This document shows positions 1-62,720 of a stretch of DNA of 64,000 bases, piece by piece. The stretch's first letter is position 1, and each line of letters begins with the position of its first letter. Source of the DNA: an uncultured Nitrososphaerota archaeon (lineage in GTDB: Archaea; Thermoproteota; Nitrososphaeria; Conexivisphaerales; DTJL01). Position numbers and translations under genes: made by a program. Location: contig CAWJIE010000002.1 of assembly GCA_963842885.1 (NCBI GenBank), positions 128,001 to 192,000 of the forward strand. Reading direction: 5' to 3'. Below the pieces are notes generated by a model that was given only the letters and a program-made list of their open reading frames with translations, made no database searches and was not told where the DNA came from.

Positions 1-85
1 GTTTCGTCTTGAGAGACTTGAGGAACTCCCTGGCCTTTTCGGTCTTCCCGGGCAGCACCGGGAACGCCATAGCGATGGGCTTCAT
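1..85 (-). CDS. 5' part of a hypothetical protein (MKPIAMAFPVLPGKTEKAREFLKSLK...), runs off the window start
   Basis: ATG at 85 on the minus strand, frame open to the edge; TTAAATA TATA-like box ~25 nt upstream. Confidence 0.6.
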   Translation of the reverse strand, partial: MKPIAMAFPVLPGKTEKAREFLKSLKTK

Positions 86-223
86 GCAATATGAAGCGAC
101 CTTCCCGATATTTAACAGTTCAGCCTTTCAGTCTGCGCTAAGCCAGGTGTTGACGCCCGAGTTTAAGACGATGGGGTGGCAGTCTCCTTTGGCGGGACTC
201 GGCCTCTTTCACTGAGTCAGTAG

Positions 224-276
224 ACTTGGCCCTTGAGTTCCAACCGGGATAGGAGCATAGGATGCGATGCTCAAGC
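224..276 (+). repeat. Dispersed intergenic repeat family A, copy 1
   Basis: acttggcccttgagttccaaccgggataggagcataggatgcgatgctcaagc; same core at ~3096, ~4128, ~4854, ~7296, ~22791. Confidence 0.9.
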
Positions 277-423
277 TCTTTGCCGAAGAGGTCGTCAAGT
301 CGTTCTCCTGAGATCCACCTCCCCCTGGGCCGTCTTCTCCGCAACCCACTTCGCTAGGCAGAACGCCCGATTGCGAAACGTTATTACAACCAGTCATTCG
401 GTACATCTCCGGTCAGCAAGGCC

Positions 424-1188
424 ATGTCACCTAGAGGTTCCTCAGGTCCGAGAACTAGGAAGGCCGCTTCAACCGCCGCGAGCTATGTCTTGAAAGTGAT
501 TCAAGACAGACGATCAGCACGAGTCCCCTTCGATCCTCACCGCCCGGTGGAGGCTGAAAGCCTCAAGAAGATCATCGAGGCCGCCCGATGGGCCCCCACT
601 CCTCACAACATGCAGAACTTCGAAATCATCATAGTGGATGACGGGAAGCTCCTGCAGGAGCTAGGGAGGATCAGGTCCCACACCTCAGTGGAGTTCCTCC
701 GGGAGAACTATCAGCAGCTTTCCCTCTCCGAGGAGGAGCTGCTCCGAAAGAAGGTCGGAGTCCTCGGTGCCCAGTTTCCACCATCGTGGAGGGACCCTGC
801 GAGGTTTGAGGAGGTGGCCCAAGAGGGCGCCGGCGCGCCCCTGAGCCAGATCATCAACGGAAGCCCGACGCTACTGATAGTGACCTATGACCCAAGGAAG
901 AGGGCGCCTGCCTCTGAAGGAGACTCCCTAGGGTTCATGGGCCTCGGCTGCGTCATGGAGAACATCTGGCTCATGGCCTACTCCCTGGGGGTGGGCCTTC
1001 ACATACTGAGCGTCTTCGGCAGGGAACCCGAGGAGGAAGTGAAGCGGGTCCTTAACATCCCCAAGGAGATGAAGATCGCCTACGCCGTGCGCCTGGGGTA
1101 CCCCGTCCATCCCCCGGCCGAGCATCGGAGGGTGAGGCGCGATGCGAGGGTGCTGACCCACCACAACCGATACATGGCCACCAGTTAA
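424..1188 (+). CDS. Nitroreductase family protein
   Basis: IQDRRSAR, AARWAPTPHNMQ, GCVMENIWLMAYSLGVG and LGYP motifs. Confidence 0.9.
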   Translation: MSPRGSSGPRTRKAASTAASYVLKVIQDRRSARVPFDPHRPVEAESLKKIIEAARWAPTPHNMQNFEIIIVDDGKLLQELGRIRSHTSVEFLRENYQQLSLSEEELLRKKVGVLGAQFPPSWRDPARFEEVAQEGAGAPLSQIINGSPTLLIVTYDPRKRAPASEGDSLGFMGLGCVMENIWLMAYSLGVGLHILSVFGREPEEEVKRVLNIPKEMKIAYAVRLGYPVHPPAEHRRVRRDARVLTHHNRYMATS

Positions 1189-3153: not shown

Positions 3154-3177
3154 GACGAGGAATGTCGCCGACCCTCA

Positions 3178-4088: not shown

Positions 4089-4098
4089 GTGTCATTTG

Positions 4099-7255: not shown

Positions 7256-7351
7256 GGATTCCGGGTCATGTCGGTATTGAACCGCCCCTCCGAGCCAACC
7301 TTCCCCATTAGGTTCTGAACGGGATAGGGACATAGGATGCTATGTTCCAAC
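7256..7351 (+). repeat. Dispersed repeat family A, copy 5
   Basis: ggattccgggtcatgtcggtattgaaccgcccctccgagccaaccttccccattaggttctgaacgggatagggacataggatgctatgttccaac; abuts the stop of the 7357..9153 gene. Confidence 0.9.
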
Positions 7352-7356
7352 GCTTG

Positions 7357-9153: not shown

Positions 9154-9350
9154 GTAATTCCCAGACTTCCTTCTTGCGGAGGAGTATTCCCTGATTAAGA
9201 CTTAAGATTTTCCCTCGCCCGCATCAAGTTTGAATCAGAAATGGCCGAGCGGAATTGCTAAATCGTGCAAGCTCTCGGGAGGTCGCAGGGCTTGCCATCC
9301 TAGCCCTGACGATCAGGAAGACGACCAAGCGGGTAGAGTCGCACTCGAAT

Positions 9351-9405
9351 TGACGATCCTCGCTTGATCATGTTTGAGTCATTGAAAACAATAGGTCAAT
9401 TGACC
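9351..9405 (+). repeat. Dispersed repeat family B, 3'-half copy
   Basis: gacgatcctcgcttgatcatgtttgagtcattgaaaacaataggtcaattgacc. Confidence 0.8.
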
Positions 9406-9423
9406 GGGGGGAGGGGCGCCCCG

Positions 9424-9543
9424 AGCCCATGGCAGTCTTGGATCTCTGTTGCTGCCGGAAAAGGAATCAATATCATCAACCTGACCTACGACGATTCTCG
9501 CTTAGTCATCTTTAGCATATTGAAAGCAATAGGTTAATTGAAT
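9424..9543 (+). repeat. Dispersed repeat family B, full ~120-bp copy
   Basis: Collinear with 26048-26170: ttggatctctgttgctgccggaaaaggaatcaatatcatc...ctcgcttagtcatcttta...ttgaaagcaatagg. Confidence 0.9.
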
Positions 9544-9682
9544 GGGAGATAGCCAGCGGAGAGTGTAGGGACCTATCGGACGACCTTCACCATCGCCATG
9601 CGGTCGACCGCGAAGCCTTTCTTCTTGTGCAGTCTTATGGCATATTCATTCTAAGCCGAAAGAGCGACGGTCCTTGACTCCT

Positions 9683-11599: not shown

Positions 11600-11757
11600 G
11601 AGCTATCGGGAGGATGTGTCGTGATTAAAGCTCAACTAAACGAACATCCGTTCTAAAGCGCCGAACGCCCATCCGTTCCTTCATCGGAGAGGGCGTAGTT
11701 TCCGTCAGGACCGAGGACAATCAACCCTTCAAGTTTCTTTAAGTGGGAATTCAAGTT

Positions 11758-11871
11758 GCCGCTGCTGGATATGACCATCACGGACAGCATGTCTTAGACG
11801 CAGGCTTGGACTTGCGAAATGGGCTGACTGGTTCATCCTTGAGTTATTGAGAACAACAGGTCAATTGAATC
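11758..11871 (+). repeat. Degenerate repeat family B copy, also carrying aggcttggacttgc shared with the flank of family A (~3027)
   Basis: gctgctggata...catccttgagttattgagaacaacaggtcaattgaatc. Confidence 0.7.
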
Positions 11872-11923
11872 AGGTAAAGGTCTGCCAACGGCGGCGAGTT
11901 TCCTTCTGTCTAACATCAACGCA

Positions 11924-12193
11924 TCAACCTTGCAGGACGGGGGTTCTGTGAAAGACGTAACAGTTGGCTGAGACGGTTCTCACTGTCAAGATGATGTCTT
12001 CCTGATGCGGTTCCTGCAACAGTTCATGCTTCGTCTGCCCCGCATAAGGGACATATGCACCTACAGCGGCGATTACGAAGCCCACGAGCGCGTTGTTATA
12101 CTTCGGAGGAACCCTTGCGAATGCCTCCGATAACCCCTTCGAGCCCACCAGGACTAGCAGGGTCAGCGAAAGGATTGAACCGACGGCGACCAT
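11924..12193 (-). CDS. Small hydrophobic ORF, possible membrane-protein remnant
   Basis: Two hydrophobic segments; no family recognised. Confidence 0.3.
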   Translation of the reverse strand: MVAVGSILSLTLLVLVGSKGLSEAFARVPPKYNNALVGFVIAAVGAYVPYAGQTKHELLQEPHQEDIILTVRTVSANCYVFHRTPVLQG

Positions 12194-12269
12194 GAAGCCT
12201 AAGCCAAGACTTCGAAGCTATTGCAAAGGGTCATGTAGTTTCTCTACGTATCCACGATGAAAGGACAGT

Positions 12270-12770
12270 TTGGCGGATATCGCAGAGGACGGTTTGAAAA
12301 CCGTCGGGCACCAGGGGCCCAAGGACGTTCGGGGGGATGGCGACGGCCAGCTGCGGTCCGTAATCGACAACGCACCCTTCGGAATCCACTTCTACAAGCT
12401 GGAGCAGGAAGGCCGCCTCGTCTTCGTCGGAGCGAACCCCGCCGCGGACCGGATACTCAACTTCTCGCACAGCCATATAGTCGGCAAGACGATAGAGGAG
12501 GCCTTCCCCGGTCTGAAAGGGACGAAGATCCCCAGCGAGTACCGGCGGGTCGCCGACACCGAAATGGGCATGAACAAGGAGCAGCTCGACAAGCTGTTCA
12601 CGCCCCTTTTCACGACCAAGGCCCAAGGCCTCGGCATGGGGCTGGCCATCTGCAAGCGCCTCGTCGAAGTCCACGGCGGCTGGATAGACGTGAAGAGCAG
12701 GCCCGGCAGGGGCACGACCTTCAGGGTCACGCTCCCGCGCATGGTTACTGCCTTCCGACGACACCGATGA
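12270..12770 (+). pseudogene. Internally deleted sensor histidine kinase (PAS start fused to HATPase_c end)
   Basis: LRSVIDNAPFGI...ANPAADRIL (PAS) joined to DTEMGM...FTPLFTTKAQGLGMGLAICKRLVEVHGG (G1/F/G2 boxes); no H or N box. Confidence 0.8.
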
Positions 12771-13010
12771 CAGCCAGTGGCTTCATGCCGATGGCCGAAG
12801 GAGACCTGGGGCTAAACGCAACTGAAGCCGTGTCCAGCCTCTTCCGATGCGCCTGTCTGGGCGACGACGATACGGTCACCGAGCTATAGGCAATGCTTGT
12901 GCTGCTGGTGTTGCCATTGACCGCCACCTGAGCCCTTAGCGCGGTTTCGTGACATTGCTTTATGCGGAACCTGACAAATGACGGTGCGTTCTGAGGCTTA
13001 GCATTAAGTA

Positions 13011-13740
13011 ATGCAACCATTCCCCATTCAACCGATGCAGCAGCCTGCGACGGGGAGGAACGTCAAACTGGTTCTTGCGGCTCTACTTGTGGCCCTTCTT
13101 GTGCTTTCGTCTGGGTTCGCCTTCTACTATGTGCAGACCGTCTCGACGATTGCAGACCTCCGGAACCAGATCGCCGTAGACCAGCAGCAGCTATCGAACC
13201 TGCAAGCCCAATTGACAAATGAGTCCATCCCTCTCAGGTTCCCGTCCGGGCTTCCCTTCTACTTGGAGAGCAACGGCACGTTGCCGGGAGAGGAACTGGT
13301 ATTGCTGATGCAGCCGAATTCGGTGGCCTTCATAACGCTGAGCTACACGTGGCGACAGGTCGGCTTCTTCGGCAACGGCACGCTCTTTCCATCGGTGGAC
13401 GTCTGGGAGAATCAGACTGCCGGCGGAACAACTTCTGGAGGTTTCGTCCAGACTCCGGACGTGAGCATCTTCGCGACACCGGGTACCGTATCCGTGAACC
13501 AGACCACGCCGACCACGGTCGTCCTTACGCTCAGCTCCAACGATGCTTCAAAGGGGATTCTACCTCTTGGGCATCCCCTATCTGTGTCCTGAGGCGCTTC
13601 TGGCAGTAGGCTACCCGGCGGCGCAAATCAACTACTCCTCCTTTAATGCCCCAGTGCTATATTGCCCTGCCTTCGGGTATGACATATCCATCGTAGGGCT
13701 AAGCGGAATGGCCTATACTTATGTTCCAATTGGGCAGTGA
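13011..13740 (+). CDS. Membrane-anchored protein with short coiled-coil stalk and beta domain; frameshift near 13550
   Basis: TM plus IADLRNQIAVDQQQLSNLQAQL; frame continues as GFYLLGIPYLCPEALLAVGY in ORF 13543..13740. Confidence 0.65.
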
Positions 13741-13745
13741 AGACG

Positions 13746-13788
13746 GTTTGGGTATCTATTGCTGCTGGAAAAGAAGGCGATATCAGCT
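13746..13788 (+). repeat. Repeat family B, 5'-half copy
   Basis: tttgggtatctattgctgctggaaaagaaggcgatatcag. Confidence 0.7.
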
Positions 13789-13880
13789 CTCAGAGTCGAG
13801 CCGCCGTTGAACATCAACCCGAAGCCGTGACTTCGAACCGTCCACTCGAATAGAACTAAATACGCAACCCCGTCTATGCA

Positions 13881-14459
13881 TTGCAAATGACCTCCGGAGG
13901 CTCAACGGTCGGGGGACGGAGCGGCATCGGCGCCACAAGGCTGGCCATCCTCATTGCGGTCGTGGCGATCGTAGCGGCTTCTTCCGCCTGCGCAATCCTG
14001 TACTATGACTATATGTCCCAGCGAACGGAGATGTCGGGTCTGCGGGGCACCATTTCGTCCCTTCAGCAGCAGGTCGCCATCCTTGAGCTGCAGCTCAATG
14101 CCCTCCAAGAACAGCTGAACATCACGGGGCCGTCTCAATCGGTGTCGATAACGGAGGTCACGTGCGAAACGAACGTCTGTGGCATCGAGTTGGTGGGCCT
14201 AAGGGAGAACGTCTCCGTGACGGGGATCCAGATAGGGAACACCACCTTCACGACTGCCGGCCCCCTGTGCAGGTGCGAAGAGGCGTGTCCGCTGTACATG
14301 TTGGCGATGCCGATTCACCTCCAGCAGGGGGTGGCGTTCGACCTCTCCGAGTCGGTGAACCTAGCCCCCGGCCAATCGGTGGTGGTCCGCGTCCTCGCCG
14401 ACGACGGCTCGGTGGCCAGCGCCATGGCCCCTGTCGGGAACGGCACCTGTATCCCCTGA
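13881..14459 (+). CDS. Membrane-anchored protein with coiled-coil stalk and Cys-containing beta domain
   Basis: TM plus ISSLQQQVAILELQLNALQEQL. Confidence 0.7.
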   Translation: MQMTSGGSTVGGRSGIGATRLAILIAVVAIVAASSACAILYYDYMSQRTEMSGLRGTISSLQQQVAILELQLNALQEQLNITGPSQSVSITEVTCETNVCGIELVGLRENVSVTGIQIGNTTFTTAGPLCRCEEACPLYMLAMPIHLQQGVAFDLSESVNLAPGQSVVVRVLADDGSVASAMAPVGNGTCIP

Positions 14460-42005: not shown

Positions 42006-42908
42006 CTATGGAGGAGCTCTTGATGGTGTTGCCGTAGCCCAAGCAGCAAGGAAGGGCTCCCGTTCACCCCCTAGTTGGCCTAGTCGCCGGGAGCCTGGCC
42101 CGAGTCGAAGATGGGGCAGAATGCGGCGACCTCCCCCTTCGAGCCTTCGATGGCCACCGCGGTGGAGCCGTCCCCGGCATGTCACGCTGCTGAGCTTCCA
42201 CCCCTGCTCCAGCCCTCCGCCATGGACCCAGTCGGCGACGGCCTTGAGCCGTTCGTCCTTCAACTCCTCGCCGCCGAGCGAGCCCGCGTACCTGACCGCC
42301 AGCTCCACCTTCCTGAAGAGCTCCTCAGGGAGCTCCCCGACCAGGACCCTCTGCGCCAGCGCGCCCAGGAGCTCCTCCCTCCTCTTCTCCTCCTTGGCCC
42401 TCGTTTCGTAGCTGGCCAGGTAGAAGAGGGTGATGAAGGCCACTATGGCCACGAGGCCCTGGGGGGACCTGACGAAGAGGAGCACATAGCCCGCCCACGG
42501 TATGACCAGGGCGGGCACCCCGAGGACCTGGTCGGCTTGGACCGCGTTCGGGTCGTTCAACAGGTTGTTGTCGCCCTTCGTCTGGTAGGACAGCTGGCCG
42601 TCGGACCCGGCCTGGACTCCGACGATCCTGTGGATGACGACGGGCTTCAGCAGCGAGTCGAGCGCCCCGATCCCCGTGCCTGATTGCACGAACACGATGA
42701 TGGAGCCGTTGGCTATGGAATGAGGCGCACCCCTGAAGAGGACGAGGTCGCCGTTCTGAAGGGTGGGGTACATGGAGGTCCCTTCGACGATGGCGAAGGG
42801 GTAGGTCGACGTCCCCATGACGACGGGGAGGACGGCCAGAAACACGAGGACGGCGACCGTAACTATGATCTCGACGTTCCTCTTCTTCAGGAAATCCTGT
42901 CTCTTCAA
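42006..42908 (-). CDS. Signal peptidase I, S26 Ser-His type (SipW/Sec11-like), with C-terminal extension
   Basis: VEGTSMYPTLQNGDLV, VIHRIV and TKGDNN..D motifs. Confidence 0.92.
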   Translation of the reverse strand: MKRQDFLKKRNVEIIVTVAVLVFLAVLPVVMGTSTYPFAIVEGTSMYPTLQNGDLVLFRGAPHSIANGSIIVFVQSGTGIGALDSLLKPVVIHRIVGVQAGSDGQLSYQTKGDNNLLNDPNAVQADQVLGVPALVIPWAGYVLLFVRSPQGLVAIVAFITLFYLASYETRAKEEKRREELLGALAQRVLVGELPEELFRKVELAVRYAGSLGGEELKDERLKAVADWVHGGGLEQGWKLSSVTCRGRLHRGGHRRLEGGGRRILPHLRLGPGSRRLGQLGGEREPFLAAWATATPSRAPP

Positions 42909-42909
42909 C

Positions 42910-45060
42910 CTATGTCAACACCCTGTACGGGACCTGGAAGTTGGTGGGCTGGCCTGCCCCCCAATAAATCGTGTAGCTGGGTGGAAGGCCGACGCCCGAA
43001 GGAGCTGTCAGGACGACGACGAGATAGCCGTTCGCCGGGATGCTCGCTGGGCCTCCGCTAAAGGACGTCGAAAGCTGGAATTCGGACGAGGTGATGGTCC
43101 CCGTCGAGAGGCCGTTGGCCACCACCCCCTGGACCACGCCCGAGGCGTCGGTGACGTAGACGGAGAAGCTCATTCCCCCCGACAGGGGGACGGCCGGGGA
43201 GTAGCTGCAGTAGATGCTCCCTTCGTAGCCCTCGCTGTGGCCGGGGGCCCAAGGGCTGGGGAGGGAGATGGGCAGGGCGAGGAAGTCATAGTACTCCGTC
43301 CCTCCTGACGTCGACACGGCCATGCCGGGGTTGTCGGCGGCGTCACAGGTCACCGTGAGGAGGTAGTCGGTGCCGTTGACGAGGGAGGGACGGGTGCCGA
43401 AGTTGAAGGAGTACCAGGCCCAGGAGGAGGTCACGTTGAGCTCCCTGGTCTGGGTCGCGGCCACCAGCTGGTAAGGGCTTGAGGTGGTGTCGTAGAGGGC
43501 GCAGGTGTAGTTCACGTTCAGCGAGCCCGACGCGGACGACAGGGCCACGGTGATGGACCTGGCGGCCTGCCCATTGCCGCCCGAGAAGGTGAACCTGAAG
43601 CCGCGGACGTAGACGTTCATCGAGGCGCCCCGGACGGCGCCGAAAGTGGAGGTCGGCATTACGTTGTTGGGGACGAAGGACCTGACCCTGAACCAGTAAA
43701 CGGTCATGGTGTCGGTCGGGTTCCAGCCAGTCATCCACATACCGGGGTAGTTGGCCGCCAGGGGGACCGTCCCTGTAACCGTCACCACGTTGGCGTAGTT
43801 CTGTGTGGAGGTCGCGACGGTGGAGTTCACGGCGAGGGATGTCACCTGGAGCACGGAGGAGGCGGGGCTGGGGGTGATGGAGGTGCTACCCCCCGGGATT
43901 ACGAGGCTGTAGAACCCGTCGGAGCCCTGAGGGGGGTATATCTGCTGGGCAGCGCCGCTCGTCACCGTGTAGGACACCGTGTCCGTCTGGATGTTGCAGT
44001 AGGACAGGCCTATCCATGCGCCGTTGCTTCCCATCTGGTAGGCGTCTAGCGCCAGCGGGCCCGCGTAAGGGTTCACCAGTGTGAAAGCGTAGCCCGCCAC
44101 TGAGTAGGGGTTCACCGTGAGCCCGTTGTTCACAGAGTAGTACCCCACGGCGCCGGTGGTGTACCACGCGCGGCTCAGGGTGGTGCCCGCGAAGTTGTCG
44201 TAGAAGGAGAAGGTGAGGTTGCCATTGTCGTACTGGCCGTACGAGGGAGACAGGGTGGGGGCCTCCCCCAAGTAGCCGGCGGCGTTGAAGTTGTTCGTAG
44301 ATAGAGGGTAGAAGCCCATGTAGGCGGTGGAGCACCCCCCTGCCGGTATGGAGGAGCTCAGCTCCACCCAGACGACGGAGGAGGTGGAGGCGCTGCTGTT
44401 GCCGCTCTCAAGCCAGGAATACAAAGGGCTCCAGCTCGCATCGAAAAAGCCGACGTTCTGGAGGTTCGCCGCCAGGTAGGAGGAGTAGCCGGACCAGTTG
44501 ACCGTCAGCATGACCTGAGTTCCGGCCGCGACGGGCGAAGTCTGAGAGTTGACCAGGGTCACGGGAACGTACGCCACCACTCCCGCAGGCGGGGAGGGCG
44601 CCCTGCCGAGGGCCTCGGAGGACGATTCGATGGAGGCGTCACCGAAGGTCCCCCCGCCGCTCGAAGCCGACGCCCAGAGGTCCAGCACCCAATTTCCGGC
44701 GCTGACTGAAGTCGCACTGGTGAACTGGGGAGACCACAGGTAGGCGGTGGCCCCATTGCTCACCGCGTAGGAGCCGCTGCTGCCGGAGGGGGTCAGGGCG
44801 GTGTTCGTGTTCGGCGTCGAGCCTGAAGGGCCCGAGGCGGTCTCGAAGTACACGTTCGTCAATGAGCCATATTTCGTCTGGAGGGTAACCGTAGTCACGC
44901 TGACCGACGCCGCGAAGGAGGCTACGGAGAGGGTGGAGATTAGGAGGATGGAAAGGAGGAACCTCTTCAGGCCTTCCTGCCCCCAAAAGAGGAAACGCCG
45001 ACTGTGAAGCCGCAAACAATCAGAAAAACCGGGGAGGTATGCGGGCCCTCGCCCGCACAC
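42910..45060 (-). CDS. Large secreted protein with DUF2341-like domain, putative fibre-associated adhesin (true start probably ~44970)
   Basis: Signal LKRFLLSILLISTLSVASFA; YVPVTLVNSQ, LYSWLESG, VWVEL and GEAPTLSPSYGQYDNG..F.FYDNF. Confidence 0.8.
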   Translation of the reverse strand: MCGRGPAYLPGFSDCLRLHSRRFLFWGQEGLKRFLLSILLISTLSVASFAASVSVTTVTLQTKYGSLTNVYFETASGPSGSTPNTNTALTPSGSSGSYAVSNGATAYLWSPQFTSATSVSAGNWVLDLWASASSGGGTFGDASIESSSEALGRAPSPPAGVVAYVPVTLVNSQTSPVAAGTQVMLTVNWSGYSSYLAANLQNVGFFDASWSPLYSWLESGNSSASTSSVVWVELSSSIPAGGCSTAYMGFYPLSTNNFNAAGYLGEAPTLSPSYGQYDNGNLTFSFYDNFAGTTLSRAWYTTGAVGYYSVNNGLTVNPYSVAGYAFTLVNPYAGPLALDAYQMGSNGAWIGLSYCNIQTDTVSYTVTSGAAQQIYPPQGSDGFYSLVIPGGSTSITPSPASSVLQVTSLAVNSTVATSTQNYANVVTVTGTVPLAANYPGMWMTGWNPTDTMTVYWFRVRSFVPNNVMPTSTFGAVRGASMNVYVRGFRFTFSGGNGQAARSITVALSSASGSLNVNYTCALYDTTSSPYQLVAATQTRELNVTSSWAWYSFNFGTRPSLVNGTDYLLTVTCDAADNPGMAVSTSGGTEYYDFLALPISLPSPWAPGHSEGYEGSIYCSYSPAVPLSGGMSFSVYVTDASGVVQGVVANGLSTGTITSSEFQLSTSFSGGPASIPANGYLVVVLTAPSGVGLPPSYTIYWGAGQPTNFQVPYRVLT

Positions 45061-54173: not shown

Positions 54174-54971
54174 TCATTCCACATTGAAGCGCAAGAATAC
54201 AGTCTGTCCCCACACATCGGCAACAACCACAGTATAGGGGCCAGCAGGGAACTGATGAAAGGCGACCACTGAGGAGCCCCCCGTATACGCCGTATAGTAT
54301 CCAGCAGCCCCGTCCAGAGGGCCTCCCTCCGTATACTGCCCGTTTGTGCTGATGACTGACTTGAAGGGGCTCAAGGAGAAAATGATGTCTTCGATATTCG
54401 TCCAGTTGGTGCCTGCTAAATCTACGAACTCCTCCGCCGCCGTATGGCTGCCAGGGAGGAAGGTGATCCTGGTCAGTGTCAGGGGCGCAGCGCAGGGAAT
54501 CGGATAGGGCTCGGCCAGCTGTAGTGGAGGCCCGGCCGTCGAGATGTCGCCCGAAGTGTAGTTGCCCTGGAACACCGCGATGACGAGAATCGGCTGCCAA
54601 TTGCACACGTTCGTGCTGTACGGCCCCCACGCTGTGATGTTAGAATAGGTGGCGAAGTCAGGGTACAACGTGAGGTCTTCTTTGAGGGTGTTCACAAGCT
54701 CCGCCGTAACGCCTATCGCTTCGCCCTGCCGAATCCCGGTCGAGTTCAAGGTCACAGAAAGCTTCAGCCCCAAGGCCGACGTCAGGCTGGCGTTCTGAGG
54801 CGTTGAGTTGAGGCCGCCGGATGACGAATTGCGGCCGCTGGTGGATGGTGGGAAGAATACGAAGGCTAACCCGACGACGTCGAAGAGCATGAGGACCAGG
54901 GCCACTCCCACAAGCACCTTGCTCGCCCCTCTTCTCATGCCAGCTCCATCGCTAGATTGTCTCCACAGCAT
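54174..54971 (-). CDS. Membrane-anchored secreted hypothetical protein
   Basis: N-terminal TM; GLKLSVTLNST, AVFQGNYT and GPYTVVVADVWGQ. Confidence 0.7.
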   Translation of the reverse strand: MLWRQSSDGAGMRRGASKVLVGVALVLMLFDVVGLAFVFFPPSTSGRNSSSGGLNSTPQNASLTSALGLKLSVTLNSTGIRQGEAIGVTAELVNTLKEDLTLYPDFATYSNITAWGPYSTNVCNWQPILVIAVFQGNYTSGDISTAGPPLQLAEPYPIPCAAPLTLTRITFLPGSHTAAEEFVDLAGTNWTNIEDIIFSLSPFKSVISTNGQYTEGGPLDGAAGYYTAYTGGSSVVAFHQFPAGPYTVVVADVWGQTVFLRFNVE

Positions 54972-55003: not shown

Positions 55004-55819
55004 TTATTGGCTGCCCAAACCGCCACCGGTGAGGGATACCTGAGGCTCGACGGCCACGATCCTCTCCCTTAGCTTGGCTGAGACCTCAGGAAGAAGCTTC
55101 GCCGCGACGTCCCCCATCTTGAGCTGCTGCCACTCAGAGGGACGAATGACTTGGGAGAACCCCATCTTCTCGGCCAGCTCGTATGCCTCCTTGGCCTGGG
55201 CCTCCTCCCCGGAGAAGATGGAGTCCTGGAGGCGCGAAAGCAGGAAGACCGCCGCGTAGATTGCTTGGGCCTTGGAGGCGCCCAGCTCCTTCTCCTTGGC
55301 TTGCAGGGCGACCCCCAGCGCCGCCTTCCTCTCCTCGACGGGCTTGTAGATGCCCAACAGGATGGAGCCGACGACGTTCTCTTCCTTGGGTGGAGCCTGA
55401 GCCCAGAGACCTACGAACGCCTCTCTCGGGTTCTCGCGGACGGTCCTGAGTGCCTCAAACGCGGCGCCCCTGGCTGAGACGAACTCTCTCAAGAGGGGAA
55501 ACAGCTCGTCGCAGAGCTTGCCGTTGCGATCGGCCATCTCCAGGGCGGGCCTGCGGAGGATGGAGGCCAGCTCCAAGACGGTGGAGCCCCTTTCGGAATG
55601 GAGGGAAAAGTCGCCCACCCGCAGGTCCGTCTCCCCCAGCTCCACCACGGTCCTCTCGTCGTACGCGAAGGCCGTCAGCTGGAGGCGCTCCTTCTTGAAG
55701 AGCGAGTGTCTCTCGTAGGTCGCCACTACATTCCTTTTCTCTTCGTCGACTTCCACCGTCACAGAGGAGTACTCTTTTCCCTTGTAAGTGGCGAAGACGA
55801 ACTCCAGCGACCTGCTCAT
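55004..55819 (-). CDS. Hypothetical protein, N-terminal beta (PH-like) domain plus helical domain; last gene of the tubulin-like operon
   Basis: ATGA overlap with the upstream gene; beta-strand pattern then amphipathic helices. Confidence 0.75.
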   Translation of the reverse strand: MSRSLEFVFATYKGKEYSSVTVEVDEEKRNVVATYERHSLFKKERLQLTAFAYDERTVVELGETDLRVGDFSLHSERGSTVLELASILRRPALEMADRNGKLCDELFPLLREFVSARGAAFEALRTVRENPREAFVGLWAQAPPKEENVVGSILLGIYKPVEERKAALGVALQAKEKELGASKAQAIYAAVFLLSRLQDSIFSGEEAQAKEAYELAEKMGFSQVIRPSEWQQLKMGDVAAKLLPEVSAKLRERIVAVEPQVSLTGGGLGSQ

Positions 55820-56859
55820 CGTATCGCCTCCATGCTCAGGTCCTTAGCCTTCATGGCAACCTTACGGTAGCCCTCCTCAAGGTACTTGGGGAGGGGAAGG
55901 CCCTTCACGCCGTATAGCACGAGGAGGTCGTAGAAGCCGTACCTGCTCATGCCCTCCACCACCTTCGACTCCGAGCTGATCAGGTCCGGGAACCTCTTGC
56001 AGTATTCATCGAAGGCCTTGGCTATGTCGCCGGCAAGTTCCCTCCCTGCCAAGGCGAAGAGGTGGGCCATCACGACATCTTCGTTGGGGACGGCCGACGA
56101 CATCACCTCCTTTTGGACCGAGAATGCGTCGGGGACCCCCTTGTACACCTTCCCGGACGCCGCCAGGAGGGGCGAGAAGGCGTGGAAGGTCACGCCGAGG
56201 CGGACGTCCTTCTTAACGAAACCGGAGACCTCCTTCAGGTTGCCCAGGAAGTAGTTCATCACCCTCAGGAGGGCCGCGCTCCCCGTGAGCAGCCCTTCGT
56301 CCTCGGTGAAGCAGGCCAGGTCATCGATGAACTCCTGATTGACGAGGATGAGCGGCTCCTTCCTCCGGACGGCCGCCTGGAGAGAAACGAAGCTGGAGCT
56401 CTTCTCCATGGCCGTGGCTCCCCTCTCCGGCACCAGGGCCATGACGACGGAGTTGGAGTCAAGGATGGGGGACGAAAGGAGGGCTGGCGCCAAGGGATGG
56501 GCCGTGTCGACCACGACGAACCTGTACCTGCACCGGTCGTAGCCGACGAGCCTGAGCCAGAGCGTGATGTCCTTCGAGTAGGCCTTGTAGTATTCGAGCC
56601 ATGTTCCTCCCTCCAACTCCTTCAGTGAGAGGCCCGATGCCTTCCTCTCCTCCGTCGCCCCCAGGGAGACCTCACCCGCCCAGGCGCCGCCGACCTGGGG
56701 AGCAGGGAGGCCCAGAGACAGGACCTCCATCTCACCGAAGTTCGGCGTGACCTTAGGGAGGGTTATCGCGGGGAAGAGCTCCGAGTACAGGACGGGGGCC
56801 CCGCACTGGTCGCAGGTCACCAAGGGGCCCACTTCGTGGCCGTTGACGCACCTAGGCAT
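55816..56859 (-). CDS. Zn-ribbon protein with a probable inactive FtsZ/tubulin-like fold
   Basis: CVNGH...CDQCG; VMALVPERGATAMEKSSSFVSLQAAVRRKEPLILVNQEFI resembles tubulin S5-H5-S6; lacks GGGTG[S/T]G. Confidence 0.65.
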   Translation of the reverse strand: MPRCVNGHEVGPLVTCDQCGAPVLYSELFPAITLPKVTPNFGEMEVLSLGLPAPQVGGAWAGEVSLGATEERKASGLSLKELEGGTWLEYYKAYSKDITLWLRLVGYDRCRYRFVVVDTAHPLAPALLSSPILDSNSVVMALVPERGATAMEKSSSFVSLQAAVRRKEPLILVNQEFIDDLACFTEDEGLLTGSAALLRVMNYFLGNLKEVSGFVKKDVRLGVTFHAFSPLLAASGKVYKGVPDAFSVQKEVMSSAVPNEDVVMAHLFALAGRELAGDIAKAFDEYCKRFPDLISSESKVVEGMSRYGFYDLLVLYGVKGLPLPKYLEEGYRKVAMKAKDLSMEAIR

Positions 56860-59113
56860 TCTTGACCACCATGGCCTCGTCGGAGGAGTCGAACGACACC
56901 TTCCTGTGAGTCAGCATATACAGCTTGATGTAGACTATGGAGGCCTCGCGCTGGAAGGGTAGCTCCGAGATGGGGACGTATTCCCGCTTGGCGACCGCCG
57001 CCTCGAGGACCTTCCTCGCTATGGGATACTGCGAGAGGAGTATGAGATTCTGCTCGTCCACCCTCCTCTTCTCCTGGAGGTTGGAGAGGACGGAGGTGGC
57101 CTCCTCCACGAAATTGGAGAGGGAGCCGAAGGTGGGCTTGCTCGCGGAGAGCTCTTGGGACAGCGTCTGGAGCCTCGTCGACTGATCTATGGACTCGAAG
57201 CGTATGACCTTGGTGGCCCCAGGCGTGAGGGACCTTATGAGACGCTCGAGCTGTTCCGACTCCTTCCGCCAGTTTTCGGTGGCCTCCTGAAGGAGGAGGG
57301 AGGTGGCTGCGAGGGCCACGGCGTAGTCGGGGGAGGAGGCCGGCTCGGCGGGGGTGAGCTTCTCCATCTCGGCTTCCAGCCTCCCCCTCCTTTGGCCGTC
57401 GAGGAGCGCGCCCAGCCCCCTGACCTTGGCCGTCAGCTCCTTCACCTTGTCCTCCAGCTCCTGCTTCGACGTGTTCCTGAAGTTCAACCAGTACTCCTCG
57501 GAGACGAGCCTCATCCCCGTGACGTACTCTCCCGAGTCGAAGAGGTAAGAGGCGTTCACCGGAGGGGTGAGGTCTTGGCGGTCAGTGATGAAGTTGTATG
57601 CGGTGCTGACGGCTGTGTACTGGGTGAATAGCTCGGATGCAGCATCCCGGACGCCCTTCGTGAGCTCCTTGTAGCTTTCTACGGCCGCCTCCAGCGACAG
57701 GAGGCCGTCGATGTTGTCCAGAGTGGGGAAGCGGCCCGCGGCCTTCGCCTCCTCCAGCATGTTGTTGTGGGTCGAAGCCAGGGCCGAGAGGGAGGTGAGC
57801 TCGTTGATGACCTTAATCCTGAGGTTCTCGGGCATCTTGTCGAGGCTGGGGAGGACCTTCCCCTGCAGCTCCGCCGTCCAGTTCACCACAGTCTCGTAGC
57901 TGGCGGTGCCGATCCCCCTATCGACGTCCTTCATCAGGGCGGAACACTCGTCGACGGCGAGCTTCTCGGGGCGGACGGATACGGTGGGCGCTTCGGAAGC
58001 TATCGTCTGGATGGCACGGGACGCCTCCTCCAGGAGCTCCTTGTTCTTGGTCAGCAGGGAGGCGAGGTCGTTCTTGGCGAACTCCAGGCGCTCCAGCCGC
58101 TGAATCGAGTACTCCCTCACGGTGAAGATGAGCCCCACGCCCAGAGCACATGAAAGGAGGAGGACGTCGTCTAGGGGGTCCGTAACGAGCGACGTCTGGT
58201 AGCCCCCCGCCGATGAGGGGGAGAGCGTTGTGATGAGCGCTACGAAGGTGACGGCCGTCACGAGCCCGGCCACCAGCGGAGAAAGGACCTTGACCAGCTG
58301 GCGAAACCTTTCGAATGCCCCCAGCCGGCTCAGCGACGTGACCACTATTCCGGCGACGGAGGCTGACGCGCTGAAGATGATGCCCAGCAGGATGACGGGG
58401 ATGACCAGGTAGGTCGAGTCGGCTGAGGAGATGTACGTGGTCACCTGGGTGGCATAAGGGGATTCGATGTTTAAGGGGAAGACGAGGGGGACGTTGAGCC
58501 CCGAAAGGGAGGGGGCCATGTAGTCGTGGAGATCCTTCAGGTAGGAGAAGATGACCGGTATATGTGTGGAGAGGACGCTGGCCTGGAAATAGATGCCGTT
58601 CTCAAGGAGGAGGAGGGGGATGAGGGTGCTGACAAAGGTGACGGAGACAGGACCGATGCTCTCCAGCCCCCCCACGGCCGCCGCCGCCACGATGAGGGCT
58701 ATTGAAAGGTAGTAGAAGGGGGTGAGCATGAGGGCGACGGCCATCACGGCAAGCGCCATCGACGACGGCTCAATCCTAGCGCTGACCAACTCGAAGACGA
58801 AGAGGAAGGCCATCAGGCCCAGGGTCAGGAGGCCGTTGGTGGTCTTGACGACGTGCAGGAGGCCGAAGCCCAGAAGCTGCCAGCCGATGGTCGCGAAGGC
58901 GAAGAGGGCCAGCATGACGGAGGCCCAGCGCGGCCTTCTGAGGGCGGCCAGGCCCAGCCCCAGGGCGACAAGGAGGGCCAGCACGGGGAAGCCTGAAGCA
59001 GTGGGGAGGAAGTTGACGACGGAGAGCCAGACGAAGGCGGAAAGGGCGATGAGCGGCGACGCGGTGTACTTGTTGATTGTGGCTCGCGCTTTGGAGGTGG
59101 TCCCTAAGGTCAC
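56852..59113 (-). CDS. Polytopic membrane protein with a large cytoplasmic coiled-coil domain
   Basis: About 9-10 TM helices in the N-terminal ~335 aa, then heptad-rich helices; GTGA overlap with the upstream stop. Confidence 0.85.
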   Translation of the reverse strand: MTLGTTSKARATINKYTASPLIALSAFVWLSVVNFLPTASGFPVLALLVALGLGLAALRRPRWASVMLALFAFATIGWQLLGFGLLHVVKTTNGLLTLGLMAFLFVFELVSARIEPSSMALAVMAVALMLTPFYYLSIALIVAAAAVGGLESIGPVSVTFVSTLIPLLLLENGIYFQASVLSTHIPVIFSYLKDLHDYMAPSLSGLNVPLVFPLNIESPYATQVTTYISSADSTYLVIPVILLGIIFSASASVAGIVVTSLSRLGAFERFRQLVKVLSPLVAGLVTAVTFVALITTLSPSSAGGYQTSLVTDPLDDVLLLSCALGVGLIFTVREYSIQRLERLEFAKNDLASLLTKNKELLEEASRAIQTIASEAPTVSVRPEKLAVDECSALMKDVDRGIGTASYETVVNWTAELQGKVLPSLDKMPENLRIKVINELTSLSALASTHNNMLEEAKAAGRFPTLDNIDGLLSLEAAVESYKELTKGVRDAASELFTQYTAVSTAYNFITDRQDLTPPVNASYLFDSGEYVTGMRLVSEEYWLNFRNTSKQELEDKVKELTAKVRGLGALLDGQRRGRLEAEMEKLTPAEPASSPDYAVALAATSLLLQEATENWRKESEQLERLIRSLTPGATKVIRFESIDQSTRLQTLSQELSASKPTFGSLSNFVEEATSVLSNLQEKRRVDEQNLILLSQYPIARKVLEAAVAKREYVPISELPFQREASIVYIKLYMLTHRKVSFDSSDEAMVVKNA

Positions 59114-61770
59114 GCTGATCCACGCCCTTTCGCCCTAGGCGAAGGGCCGCTCAGCTTGGAGATCAGTTCAGCGAGGTCCGTGATGCCGTGCTCCAACAGG
59201 AAGGAGCGGAACATGACGCGCTCCACCTTGCGGACGCCGTCGGCGTCGTTCCTCATTCCCTGAAACTTCTCCAGCTGCTCGACTGTGGCCTTGGCGAAGA
59301 TTATCAGGAATGTGATGGTCCATGGGTCCACCTGCGGTATCTGGCGGATAGAGATGCTCTTGCTTGCCTCCACGCTGGAGAAGATGTTTAGGGTGCTCGA
59401 AAGGTTCACCTGGAGGTCCTGGTCCCAGAGCCCCTGGGGGATGCCCACAGTCGCCCATATCAGGTCGGAGCGGTAGCCGTCGTTTAGGCCGGCGTAGTTG
59501 GAGACGCTGAATATGCGCATGTAGCTCTTTACCACGTCCCTGAAGCGGTCCCTGTCGACTATCTCCCTGAGTATGCCCTCGCCCTTAAGCGAGGCCTCCT
59601 CCTCCGTGAGTATCTTCTTCAGTATCTTCTCCTGTTCGTCGTCGCTGAGCTCGACGACCCTTTCGAAGTAGCTCCCCGTGCCCGAGATGCTGCTGAGCAT
59701 GCTGTTGAGCTCGGCCGTCTTGCCGACGATAGAGTTAAGAGACTTCCTGTACGGTGAAGTGACTTCGAGGGACTTCTCCAAGGACGTCAGGATGTCCAGC
59801 TCGGAATGGAGCCTGTCCACCTCCGCCTTCCTCTCCTCGAGCGCGGTCTTCTGGGCGCCTATCTCACCCTTCACGGACTCAAGGTGGCGCCGGATGACCT
59901 TCCGTCTGCCGCTGATGTCCAGCCTTATCTTCTGGAGCTCCCCCTTGAGCCTCGTCTCCTCCGTCTCCTTCTGCGCCAAGAGGCGCATGAGGGACTCCAT
60001 CTCCTCCCCCGCCTCCTTGAACCTGGACTCCAGGTTCTTCCTTACCACCCTCACGCCGGGGATGTACTGGTCCGACATCTTGATCTCGGTCTCGGGCTTC
60101 GTCAGAATAGTCCCCGCCGTCTTGAACAGTGGGGTCACCTCCGTCTCGCCCACGGTGACGGCCCTCTTCCCCTCCGGGCTCTGGTCCTTGGCGAAGCGTA
60201 TCTTCAATTCGTCGGCGAGGGCCTTGGTCCTCAGGTACGTGCCGAAGACTTGAATGGCGCCGTTGACCAGGTTGACGAAGTTGATGTAGGAGCGTATCTG
60301 CCTGAGCTGGCTGGAAGTCACGAACTTGCTCGCCGTCAAGCTGCTTTCGACGTCGGCGAGGCTGGCGGCGAGCCCCTTGGTGAAGTCCTCGTAGGTCCTG
60401 CTTATCTCCGAGATGTCCTGGCTCCAGCGGCCTATCTGCTGCATCACGGAGTACTCCACCGTGTCCTCGGAGAAGGCCATGGCCTTCAGCGCCTTGGCCC
60501 ACTTGTCGTTGTAATATGCGGCGAAGTCCTCTATCCCCTTGACCTGCTTCTTGAACTCGAGATCATACTTGCCCGCCCTGTGTATGACGTCCTCCACTTC
60601 GGCGTCGAAGGACTCCGGCCTGTAGTTGTTGATGGAGATGAGGTGCCTCCTGAAAAGCTCCACCAGTTCGATATACCGCCTCTTCAGCACGTCGTCGATC
60701 TGAGAGAGGGACTCCCTCTTGAGGTTGACAAAGGAGCCCACCGACTCCAGGAGCTTCAGGTACTCGTGCAGGTACTTCAGGTAGTCCTCCAGGGGGTAGC
60801 GGATCTTGAGGTAGGCGATGTTGTGGACCCAGTTCTGGCCGAAGTCGTTGTTCGTCCCGACGCGGCTGAGGAGGTCGGCCAGGTCGAAGTTCATCATAAC
60901 ATGGACGATGTCGACGATGGCCCCGTCCAGCTCCTTTTTAGCGCTGAGAAGGGAGCTCTTGTTGTTGTAGACAGGGTCTAGAGGTAGGAAGAACATGGCG
61001 GTGAAGGGGTTCCTGTATGCCCCGCCATACGCCTTGATCACCCGTTCGTTGGCCTCCCTGTCGAAGAGGAGTTGCGCCTCCATCAGCGTAGCATAGGGGG
61101 CCGGTCCCCGGGCTAGGAGGTCGTCGGCCGAGCTAGGGAGTATGCCCAGCCCCACTATTGGGACGGCGGATCCCAGTTTCGCCCTCAGGTGGCGGGCGAA
61201 GTCGAAGATGAGACCGCTCCCCGTGCCTCCTCCCAGCCCGAAGACCAGGAGGACTATGGGCTGATACTTGGAGGTGAGGACCCTGTCCTTGTAGACGGAC
61301 ATCACGCTGTTCAGCTCGACGTAGTGGTAGTAGTTCAGGGCGTACACGGCCTTGCTGAGCGCCCTCTGCCTGCCGACCCCCCCGGCTAGGGGCGGGATGG
61401 ACATGGAGGACTGGATCCACGGCCTGTAATCATTGACGGTGACGCCATCCTTTTCGAGGTACTTGGAGTACTTCTCCATGAACTCGAACAGGGCGTCGGG
61501 GGTGTTGAACTTGATATTCAGGGGCTTGAGCCACAGGCGATCGACGCCGATTCCCTTCTCCTCAAGCTTCGCCATGGCCTCCTTGTAGGAGGCCTGGAGG
61601 GAGACCAGGTCCCCATCGGCCACGTCGAGGGCGAGGCAGGCGATGCGGAAGTCCTCGGTGGCGAGGAGGCGTGCCAAGCGCTCGCTCTCTATGAGAGTCT
61701 GGATGACGTTGGCGCCCGTGCCGCCGAGGCCTATGACGTGGATGGAGGCGAAGACGTTGGCCTTGCTCAT
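59110..61770 (-). CDS. FtsZ/tubulin-like GTPase (FtsZl1/Tubulin_2-type) with long coiled-coil insertion
   Basis: VIGLGGTGANV (T1), AGGVGRQRALS, GLGGGTGSG (T4, 61213-61233) and NFDLAD (T7-like, 60874-60891); 886 aa. Confidence 0.93.
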   Translation of the reverse strand: MSKANVFASIHVIGLGGTGANVIQTLIESERLARLLATEDFRIACLALDVADGDLVSLQASYKEAMAKLEEKGIGVDRLWLKPLNIKFNTPDALFEFMEKYSKYLEKDGVTVNDYRPWIQSSMSIPPLAGGVGRQRALSKAVYALNYYHYVELNSVMSVYKDRVLTSKYQPIVLLVFGLGGGTGSGLIFDFARHLRAKLGSAVPIVGLGILPSSADDLLARGPAPYATLMEAQLLFDREANERVIKAYGGAYRNPFTAMFFLPLDPVYNNKSSLLSAKKELDGAIVDIVHVMMNFDLADLLSRVGTNNDFGQNWVHNIAYLKIRYPLEDYLKYLHEYLKLLESVGSFVNLKRESLSQIDDVLKRRYIELVELFRRHLISINNYRPESFDAEVEDVIHRAGKYDLEFKKQVKGIEDFAAYYNDKWAKALKAMAFSEDTVEYSVMQQIGRWSQDISEISRTYEDFTKGLAASLADVESSLTASKFVTSSQLRQIRSYINFVNLVNGAIQVFGTYLRTKALADELKIRFAKDQSPEGKRAVTVGETEVTPLFKTAGTILTKPETEIKMSDQYIPGVRVVRKNLESRFKEAGEEMESLMRLLAQKETEETRLKGELQKIRLDISGRRKVIRRHLESVKGEIGAQKTALEERKAEVDRLHSELDILTSLEKSLEVTSPYRKSLNSIVGKTAELNSMLSSISGTGSYFERVVELSDDEQEKILKKILTEEEASLKGEGILREIVDRDRFRDVVKSYMRIFSVSNYAGLNDGYRSDLIWATVGIPQGLWDQDLQVNLSSTLNIFSSVEASKSISIRQIPQVDPWTITFLIIFAKATVEQLEKFQGMRNDADGVRKVERVMFRSFLLEHGITDLAELISKLSGPSPRAKGRGSA

Positions 61771-62720
61771 AGGGCGTCACCCAGCTGCTCCTTCAGCTTC
61801 TTCAGGCGCTCCGCCAGCGCCTTGTCGTACTTCCCTGCCGTGACTTCGAGCGACGCCAGCTCCTTCTGGGCGTCGCTGACGATGCTGCCCGCGAAGCCGC
61901 GCCTGGACCTGGTCCTGACCCACATCAGGGCCAGGAGGAAGGCCACCAGCGCCAGGACGACGGTGGAAACCAGCAGCAGGGTGTAGACCGTGGTGCTGGG
62001 CGGGGCGGGGAAGTTCTGCGGATTGAGCGTGTTCAACAAGTCCGTGGCCGTCACGGGGAGGCCTGACGTGTAGATGGTCTGGGCCTGAGCCAGGAGCCTG
62101 TTGACTACGCTGGTGTACGCCGGGTCAATCTGGCCCGAGGAGATGAGGTTGGACTTCTGTGAGTAGGTGTTGAGATAGCTCTGGATGGCGTCGTCCGATA
62201 TCGTGATGCTGTAGTTCGCCACACGGGAGCCACCTGTCACGAAGGCAGTGATCAGGTCGAAGCTGGGCTTGGCGAACCTGAGGCTGAAGGGGATTCCTTC
62301 GCTGTTGTTGAGCACTTGCGTCGTGAAGGTGGCGGGGATGGTGAACACGGCAGAGAGGGTGACCTCACCCTGCACCTGGGTGAATATCACAGCGGGGGAC
62401 CCTGGGGTGAAGGACGCGGGGCTGTATCCAGCGTAACCAGGCGTCAGGACGTACCAGTATTGGGAGCCGCTGAGGGTCATGCTGGGGTCCAGGAAGACCG
62501 TAAAATTGGAGATCGACTGGGTGAACGGGACTTCCAGGGTGATGGTTACGTTGTAGTTGTGACCAGCCAGCAGCGGCTGACCGGCCGCGACGTCCACGTT
62601 CCCCGTGAAGTCATGCACTGAGTAAGCGCTCACCCAGTTCGTCGTAGCGGCATGGGCAGGAATCGCCAGAAAGGCGAGTGACAGAACTAACAGTAGCGAG
62701 AGGCCTCTCTGCCTTCTCAT
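61767..62720 (-). CDS. Single-pass surface protein (signal peptide, beta-sandwich ectodomain, TM, short cytoplasmic coiled coil); first gene of the operon
   Basis: MRRQRGLSLLLVLSLAFLAIPAHA signal; TM LLLVSTVVLALVAFLLALMWV; ATGA overlap with the GTPase. Confidence 0.85.
   Translation of the reverse strand: MRRQRGLSLLLVLSLAFLAIPAHAATTNWVSAYSVHDFTGNVDVAAGQPLLAGHNYNVTITLEVPFTQSISNFTVFLDPSMTLSGSQYWYVLTPGYAGYSPASFTPGSPAVIFTQVQGEVTLSAVFTIPATFTTQVLNNSEGIPFSLRFAKPSFDLITAFVTGGSRVANYSITISDDAIQSYLNTYSQKSNLISSGQIDPAYTSVVNRLLAQAQTIYTSGLPVTATDLLNTLNPQNFPAPPSTTVYTLLLVSTVVLALVAFLLALMWVRTRSRRGFAGSIVSDAQKELASLEVTAGKYDKALAERLKKLKEQLGDAL

Follow-up and report, generated by a model that had tools for sequence, protein, structure and literature searches.

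TUB886, an 886-amino-acid (aa) protein of an uncultured Nitrososphaerota archaeon, is a tubulin-like GTPase whose C-terminal domain, as structure prediction supports, is discontinuous in sequence: it is interrupted by a long helical stalk and completed by a beta-alpha-beta-beta segment that follows the stalk. The gene lies at positions 59110..61770 (minus strand) of the 64,000-nucleotide (nt) stretch of DNA analyzed here, referred to as the window (contig CAWJIE010000002.1 of assembly GCA_963842885.1, positions 128,001 to 192,000), and it was assigned to the FtsZl1/Tubulin_2 family on the basis of its open reading frame (ORF), its homologues and an AlphaFold2 (AF2) model. Probably, TUB886 is a split-C-domain FtsZl1 GTPase working in a membrane-tethered, GTP-driven filament or scaffold. 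The match to the Pfam family Tubulin_2 (PF13809), the only one in its genome, covers aa 12-214 with 41.5 bits against a cut-off of 27 (E 1.3e-10).

GTPase motifs and predicted split C-terminal domain

The conservation of TUB886 was evaluated on an alignment of 43 sequences with identity down to 34%, to which all counts out of 43 refer. The T1 and T4 loops of the tubulin/FtsZ superfamily are both present. The T1 loop GLGGTG (aa 14-19; 61714..61731, minus strand, as for all the features of TUB886 given below) has G14, G16, G17 and G19 invariant; in the T4 signature GGGTGSG (aa 180-186; 61213..61233), which aligns with the T4 of CetZ1, the invariant residues are G180-G182, G184 and G186. The hhalign comparison with FtsZ spans both loops, the N-domain being aligned over T1 and over S4-T4-H5. 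The T7 motif of FtsZ is NxDFAD. In TUB886 a T7-like loop, NFDLAD (aa 294-299; 60874..60891), is placed between helices H7 (274-293) and H8 (297-304), so that N294-F-D296-L-A-D299 provides the acidic residues expected of a synergy loop after the core helix, with a predicted catalytic role. F295, D296 and D299 were found in 43/43 sequences and N294 in 26/43. Further motifs are HNIAYLKIRYP (aa 316-326), LIWATVGIP (770-778), SISIRQIP (805-812) and TITFLIIFAK (818-827), and W772, P778, W782, P816 and W817 are invariant in the C-terminal part. The best conserved regions are the GTPase motifs, followed by the final ~130 residues, the middle of the protein being less conserved. Judging from this alignment, the motifs are under selection and not a product of chance.

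A word-seeded search in which 8000 candidates were scored returned 311 homologues at E<=0.001, and most of the 120 listed among these 311 are full length (860-910 aa, 97-100% query coverage). The exhaustive search of 1.84 billion representatives with the TUB886 family profile gave 273 matches at E<=0.001, about 13 of which are full-length clusters of 858-916 aa. Three DNA sequencing runs, from peat and freshwater metagenomes, contained at least half of the words sampled from this locus, and no RNA run was listed with those words.

The AF2 model, built on the 43-sequence alignment, has a mean predicted local distance difference test (pLDDT) of 89.7 and a predicted template modelling score (pTM) of 0.77, with 853 of the 886 residues at 70 or above. 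Residues 1-326 (60793..61770) form the nucleotide-binding domain with S1-S6, H7, T7, H8 and S7 (315-324), an assignment based on the secondary structure of the model, on structural alignment to CetZ, FtsZ and tubulin, and on hhalign to FtsZ. The elements follow one another in the order of FtsZ: six strand-helix units, the core helix 274-293, the NFDLAD loop, helix 297-304 and strand 315-324. After the stalk, the chain returns to the head with aa 761-875 (59146..59490), a block surpassed in conservation by the GTPase motifs only. In the model this segment contains S8 (771-777), H10 (784-797), S9 (806-812), S10 (818-828) and the C-terminal helices 836-873; its strand-helix-strand-strand order is that of S8-H10-S9-S10. 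The pLDDT was 86-96 over aa 761-860 and 89-94 over aa 301-330. In this way, the model presents the two-domain tubulin/FtsZ fold, with a Rossmann-like N-domain, H7 and a C-domain of the S7-H9-S8-H10-S9-S10 type.

The completed head was compared with known structures by structural alignment. The best superpositions were with CetZ1 4b46 (score 27.9, 3.4 A, 323 of 330 residues, model residues 8..848), CetZ 3zid_A (27.3, 3.4 A, 321 of 360, residues 7..850) and CetZ2 4b45_A (26.7, 3.4 A, 327 of 334, residues 8..850), followed by tubulins (about 23, 3.2-3.6 A, 350-360 residues, model 7..870) and Mycobacterium tuberculosis FtsZ 1rlu_A (22.9, 3.5 A, 292 of 305, model 7..828). A search independent of Foldseek gave the same outcome. 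Superposition on two-domain CetZ, FtsZ, TubZ or tubulin requires that residues before 326 be joined to residues up to 828-871. Since nearly all the residues of these chains were aligned, and the model has a single strand between residues 305 and 700, the strands of the CetZ/FtsZ C-domain must be matched by aa 771-828. From the alignment ranges and the topology, we infer that S7 would pair with S8-S10 in one sheet, and the exit direction of the stalk is deduced in the same manner.

These results can be set against the first-pass annotation of this DNA, which was made by reading the sequence. It had described the T1, T4 and T7-like motifs as intact, and all of them were found where it placed them, with the T1/T4 glycines, D296 and D299 invariant among the 43 sequences. 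Its proposal of a helical insertion into a tubulin C-domain that is completed by the C-terminal segment agrees both with the AF2 superpositions and with the stalk-less relatives described below. As a check, it had suggested looking in an AlphaFold model at whether that segment packs on aa ~300-325; the head is indeed completed in the model, the pairing of strands being deduced from the alignment ranges. The annotation mentioned neither the FtsZl1 family nor the gene cassette described below.

Helical stalk and natural relatives

The stalk (aa 327-760; 59491..60792) interrupts the C-domain after S7 and before S8. It is nearly all helix in the AF2 model, with about 15 helices, the longest of which are 327-379, 559-614 and 622-668, and the amphipathic periodicity of 3.5/3.6 residues is elevated from about aa 309 to 700. 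The first-pass annotation had called it a heptad-rich stalk of ~440 aa; its helical and amphipathic character was confirmed by model and periodicity, with a length closer to ~430 aa. The hairpin coiled coil that was also envisaged holds as far as a helical arm with a hairpin at its tip is concerned, but the arm consists of many helices and is not a single long coiled coil of two. Likewise, the resemblance to dynamin or SMC proteins stands for topology and for nothing beyond it. The matches to LmuB (PADLOC) and to SMC, ASRP and TraP (NCBIfam) were discarded as coiled-coil noise far below the cut-offs.

The loop between helices 559-614 and 622-668 carries the best-conserved motif of the stalk, RLDISGRRK (aa 616-624; 59899..59925). 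G621 is conserved in 39/43 sequences, and K or R occupies position 622 in 43/43, position 623 in 42/43 and position 624 in 39/43. A conserved polybasic tip of this kind may bind acidic lipid or a partner.

The exhaustive search, followed by local hmmsearch, showed that there are natural relatives of 473-588 aa which carry both parts of the head without the stalk. They match profile positions 8-290 and 754-870, with ~100 aa in between; in P0148, for instance, profile 8-267 is matched at aa 18-294 and profile 754-870 at aa 395-511, and P0149, P0160 and P0161 are alike. Because these relatives match both head regions, versions with adjacent head parts do exist in nature, which is evidence for the stalk being a separable module, as far as profile matches can tell. 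When the profiles were compared, T1 and T4 were the only stretches over which the stalk-less relatives could be aligned with FtsZ.

A quick maximum-likelihood tree of the N-domain, rooted at the midpoint only, grouped the stalked proteins (17 rows, Shimodaira-Hasegawa-like approximate likelihood ratio test, SH-aLRT, 83) as sisters to the short ones (19 rows, SH-aLRT 100), with a joint SH-aLRT of 97. The classical FtsZl1 proteins (1070-1150 aa) were located outside both groups. This suggests an ancestral stalk that the short forms would have lost, the polarity resting on the midpoint root.

It should be noted that the TUB886 family is not new: it is the Thermoproteota/Chloroflexota branch of FtsZl1 (FtsZ-like 1), the family behind PF13809. 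Makarova and Koonin predicted FtsZl1, which is a widespread group within the tubulin superfamily, in 2010 (PMC2875224). In that paper, FtsZl1 proteins are described as having an FtsZ-like N-domain, a long helical or coiled-coil region and a C-terminal domain, an architecture that TUB886 matches in model and alignment. The paper states that the T6-H7 elements are not identifiable and that the C-terminus, mostly alpha-helical, is unlike the C-domains of tubulin and FtsZ. It places the genes together with membrane proteins, predicts a role in membrane remodelling, and names as frequent, although not universal, operon partners a vWA protein, an OmpA-like protein, a Ser/Thr kinase and a divergent P-loop GTPase. 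None of these four partners was found by Pfam or NCBIfam in the six proteins of the cassette described below. A Sulfolobus gene disrupted by a transposon, SSO1376, is mentioned there as what is probably the first representative of a crenarchaeal FtsZl1 subfamily, and a Sulfolobus tengchongensis protein proved to be 43% identical to TUB886. Classic FtsZl1 proteins (1090-1150 aa) match just the N-terminal part of the TUB886 family profile.

Earlier work overlooked the C-domain because the C-terminal module is not recognisable as FtsZ_C by sequence and because an arm of 430 residues splits it. To explain the missing elements of the filament, the describers of FtsZl1 offered three options: they are present but unrecognisable, they were replaced by something new, or there is no polymerisation. 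For this branch, the model supports the first option. The literature searched contained neither an experimental nor a structural study of an FtsZl1 protein. We found no published account of a split C-domain with intact T7, of the basic stalk tip or of natural stalk-less relatives, nor of the translationally coupled cassette with membrane partners and a tubulin-fold partner; this search was made without the supplementary member and neighbour lists of PMC2875224, which may include this branch. Sequences in the PDB gave, with the family profile, the T4 region of CetZ and coiled-coil noise, and nothing else. The protein atlas returned only the own family of TUB886, and it holds no structure for TUB886 or for tm753, its neighbour.

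Gene cassette and genome setting

TUB886 is the second of five genes on the minus strand whose neighbouring ends overlap by 4 to 8 nt. The product of the first, up317 (61767..62720), is a type-I membrane protein: its signal peptide is followed by an extracellular domain of ~220 aa, one transmembrane (TM) helix (248-266) and, on the cytoplasmic side, a conserved helix of ~50 aa. The up317 stop and the TUB886 start overlap, and a homologue of up317 is the direct upstream neighbour in 77/80 related loci. The start of tm753 (56852..59113) overlaps the TUB886 stop; the protein has ~9 TM helices (aa 20-332) and a soluble helical domain of ~420 aa, and it belongs to no Pfam or NCBIfam family. Then follow zn347 (55816..56859), with a zinc ribbon and a tubulin fold, and p271 (55004..55819), whose start overlaps the zn347 stop. 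p271 is an accessory protein of this clade only: 15 stand-alone homologues were found directly downstream of zn347, all of them in Nitrososphaerota-type loci, and neither Pfam nor NCBIfam gave a family match. An apparent relationship between p271 and zn347 came from a drifting iterative profile, caused by overlapping, over-extended ORFs, and was rejected when clean alignments gave an hhalign probability of 0.09%. Profile comparisons of tm753 with TUB886, with zn347 and with up317 showed no meaningful similarity, and the up317 profile matched nothing among the PDB sequences. Beyond p271, at a distance of 33 nt, there is a gene (window 54174-54971, minus strand) for a protein of 265 aa that begins with a single TM or signal helix; it has a homologue in 0/80 related loci and its product is probably outside the conserved cassette.

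The protein zn347 has an N-terminal C-H-C-C zinc ribbon and then a complete tubulin/FtsZ fold (aa 43-346). Its AF2 model (pLDDT 90.0, pTM 0.82) matches CetZ 3zid_A at a Foldseek E of 5.5e-11, and its family profile matches FtsZ with an hhalign probability of 95.3% (E 2.1e-8, 241 columns) and the T4 region of TUB886 with 86% (E 5e-6). Pfam Tubulin was matched by 10/29 members of the zn347 family, not by the copy in the window. Chloroflexota-type and Nitrosopumilales-type copies retain GxGxxG and GGGTGxG. In the clade of the window, LGLPAPQVGG stands in the place of T1 and DTAHPLAPA in that of T4, and there is no conserved acidic pair at the position aligned with the T7 of FtsZ. To judge from these motifs, zn347 of this clade keeps the tubulin fold but no longer has the GTP motifs, and the cassette apparently combines one active, stalked tubulin-like GTPase with one tubulin-fold protein that, in this lineage, would be unable to bind nucleotide. 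A complex prediction, made without controls, with TUB886 aa 1-345 and aa 745-886, GTP and zn347 scored 0.00 against a mark of 0.32 and bears neither way on binding.

In order to evaluate the conservation of the cassette, one genome per species was scanned, giving 88 relatives, of which 80 loci were kept: 56 archaeal (27 Nitrososphaerota, 22 Bathyarchaeota, 3 other Thermoproteota and 4 unclassified) and 24 from Chloroflexota. With iterated profiles, up317 was detected in 77/80 loci, tm753 in 66/80 and zn347 in 63/80, many of the misses being at contig ends; plain tblastn found fewer (up317 in 62 loci, tm753 in 26, zn347 in 18 and p271 in 3). The order up317, TUB, tm753, zn347 was observed in 30 loci, and in 11 more with p271 at the end, while zn347 is inverted between TUB and tm753 in 11 Bathyarchaeia-type loci. 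The presence of the cassette in both archaea and bacteria implies that it was transferred between them, unless bins were mislabelled.

Some variants of this organization were also found. The Chloroflexota-type cassette (L020-L055, L065 and L075; 24 loci) has an extra gene of ~325 aa between tm753 and zn347, with no similarity to p271 or zn347. One of these records, L075, is 2.1 Mb long and titled chromosome, and the proteins from Dehalococcoidia/Chloroflexota are 31-39% identical to those of the window. The Nitrososphaerota contig L017 contains a second, inverted tm753-zn347-p271 copy (372-4528, minus strand) upstream of a complete cassette (6987-14453, plus strand). In two loci the tubulin-like gene reads as two overlapping ORFs, L008:7983-10668 (479+459 aa) and L056:7983-10663 (177+844 aa), and tm753 is likewise fragmented in L056; frameshifts, decay or assembly errors may account for these splits.

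The stalk-less relatives are encoded elsewhere, in tandem pairs of paralogous tubulin-like genes such as L137:3961-5499 and L137:6001-7680. This cluster comprises 189 ORFs in 80 loci on metagenome contigs (L114-L193). Eight ORFs of loci L137 and L187 that were compared with Pfam included CN_hydrolase, a CobW-type GTPase, a CbbQ/NorQ AAA+ protein and a vWA protein, and L187 has a third Tubulin_2 gene. Since the up317, tm753 and zn347 profiles matched in 0/80 of the stalk-less loci, their gene context is a different one, without the membrane partners of the cassette.

The source genome has 2.03 Mb and is 87% complete. Outside the window, it carries a gene for a 324-aa FtsZ-like protein (L082:967-1941, minus strand, the same as G000:C5), in which T4 reads GLGGSSGSN instead of GGGTGSG. 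FtsZ_C (PF12327) had no match in this genome, which was scored with 120 other genomes of the phylum, and there is a weak match to Snf7. The separate FtsZ-like gene and the weak Snf7 match make it unlikely that TUB886 is the division FtsZ; together with the presence of the cassette in 11/301 sampled genomes of the phylum (8/123 genera), they indicate an accessory system and not the division machinery. The flanks of the window are ordinary, with an ABC-2 transporter, SDR, VTT/DedA, cation efflux and signal peptidase genes, and none of the 11 flanking ORFs scanned belongs to an integrase, nuclease or defence family. PADLOC gave nothing for the five neighbouring proteins, and for TUB886 only weak LmuB matches in the coiled-coil region. 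Elsewhere in the window, at 42910-45060 (minus strand), there is an ORF of 716 aa whose sole family match is a weak one to DUF2341, with a signal-peptidase-like gene (42006-42908) among its neighbours.

Proposed function and known systems

The fold, the split topology and the conservation of motifs and cassette are in silico results, from which a filament or scaffold function is deduced as the most likely one. The invariant T7 aspartates suggest that the head of TUB886 may be competent for polymerisation. In the mechanism that we propose, GTP-bound heads would associate head to tail, with each GTP site completed by the T7 of the adjoining subunit, and the stalks would exit from the C-domain, away from both longitudinal faces. 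Through their basic tips, or through the two membrane partners (the cytoplasmic parts of tm753 and up317), the stalks would anchor the polymer on the cytoplasmic side of the membrane, and up317 would connect the system to the cell surface. GTP turnover would then organise or remodel the membrane or envelope, with the degenerate zn347 acting as a non-hydrolysing co-subunit, cap or nucleator.

Several observations weigh against this proposal. All the structural evidence is prediction. Pfam detected neither FtsZ_C nor Tubulin_C in TUB886, and aa 745-875 compared with the FtsZ alignment gave an hhalign probability of 0.1%, that is, no detectable similarity. A GTPase or assembly assay for any FtsZl1 protein was not found in the literature searched. 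The stalk-less sister clade has no obvious NxDxxD motif and a gene context that is different and soluble, so head-to-tail assembly is not assured across the wider group. Furthermore, a family as sparse as this one (11/301 genomes) makes a core cytoskeletal role unlikely.

The alternative that fares best is a non-filamentous, GTP-gated mechanoenzyme, in which the heads, on binding GTP, would do no more than dimerise or pair with zn347, and the stalk, like that of dynamin/BDLP or SMC proteins, would work as a lever or assembly arm in a membrane-bound oligomer. A head split by a long antiparallel helical excursion is the topology of an SMC head, a second tubulin-fold protein without nucleotide motifs fits a defined heterodimer, and the tandem gene pairs among stalk-less relatives speak for it as well. 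Nevertheless, we consider this alternative unlikely: all characterised members of the tubulin/FtsZ superfamily form filaments, according to the authors' response in PMC2875224, and the invariant T7 is what would be expected for in-trans hydrolysis within a polymer.

It seems very unlikely, in turn, that the cassette is an accessory system of conflict or of mobile elements, serving in virus defence or in the transfer of DNA or vesicles. Its patchy distribution over 11/301 genomes and 8/123 genera would suit such a role, as would the finding of the same cassette in archaea and in 24 Chloroflexota records, with the transfer between domains that this implies. However, PADLOC offered the weak LmuB coiled-coil matches for TUB886 and none for its five neighbours, the flanking genes are ordinary, with 0/11 scanned ORFs being integrase, nuclease or defence genes, and the cassette has no nuclease or ATPase effector by Pfam or NCBIfam. 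That the completed C-domain is a modelling artefact, with aa 761-875 an unrelated alpha/beta domain docked on the head by AlphaFold, is likewise very unlikely, for although aa 745-875 have no sequence similarity to FtsZ_C by hhalign and the alignment is only 43 sequences deep, the pLDDT is high on both sides of the junction, as given above, 323/330 CetZ1 residues superpose at 3.4 A only with the C-terminal strands, the strand-helix-strand-strand order equals S8-H10-S9-S10, and natural stalk-less relatives have both head parts adjacent.

A bolder version of these ideas, which we regard as quite unlikely, is an unrecognised prokaryotic tubulin machine that spread between Thermoproteota and Chloroflexota. 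The stalked GTPase would pair or co-polymerise with its nucleotide-dead paralogue, in the manner of alpha- and beta-tubulin, and the rigid arm with its basic tip would turn GTP-dependent changes of the head into movement or patterning of the two membrane proteins. If this were true, a mechanoenzyme built on tubulin would act across the membrane, with one of its membrane proteins reaching the cell surface. If the same split holds for the classical FtsZl1 proteins, the whole family would possess the full polymerisation apparatus, contrary to the published description. The T7 aspartates, the basic tip, the stalk-less relatives and the three partner proteins offer handles for testing polymerisation in FtsZl1, and S. 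tengchongensis is a cultivable carrier.

Among known systems, TUB886 shares with the classic FtsZl1 proteins the FtsZ-like N-domain with GGGTG(S/T)G, the long helical region, the C-terminal domain and the genes for membrane proteins alongside. Unlike the FtsZl1 description, it has H7, an invariant T7 and a C-domain with beta strands that is split by the stalk, and, unlike classic FtsZl1 operons, its partners are up317, tm753 and a second tubulin-fold protein. Of the PDB sequences, that of CetZ (4b46, 4b45, 3zid) is matched best, over the T4 region, and the structural match to CetZ includes the helices after S10. However, the sequence similarity is confined to ~80 residues (phmmer E 0.001, aa 173-252), and CetZ is contiguous and stalk-less, with about 350-400 aa (chains of 330-360 residues) and another gene context, whereas TUB886 has an insertion of 430 aa.

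The likeness to SMC and Rad50 is one of topology only, in that two sequence-distant parts of a nucleotide-hydrolysing head are linked by a long stretch of antiparallel helices whose tip is specialised. SMC and Rad50 have the ABC ATPase fold, and SMC proteins a hinge, whereas TUB886 is a tubulin GTPase with an arm of ~430 aa and many helices, without a hinge domain. A relation in sequence is absent: TIGR02168 scored 15.2 bits against a cut-off of 567, and the SMC/ASRP matches (E 0.002-0.003) cover the helical region only. Finally, alpha/beta-tubulin, BtubA/BtubB and the Asgard AtubA/B are tubulin-fold genes paired in an operon, with one partner lacking catalytic or nucleotide features, as observed here. 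In contrast to those pairs, the partners in the cassette differ greatly in length (886 vs 347 aa), one having a stalk and the other a zinc ribbon, and a heterodimer would be hypothetical in this case. TUB886 and zn347 add another non-eukaryotic case in which an active tubulin-fold gene is paired with an inactive one.

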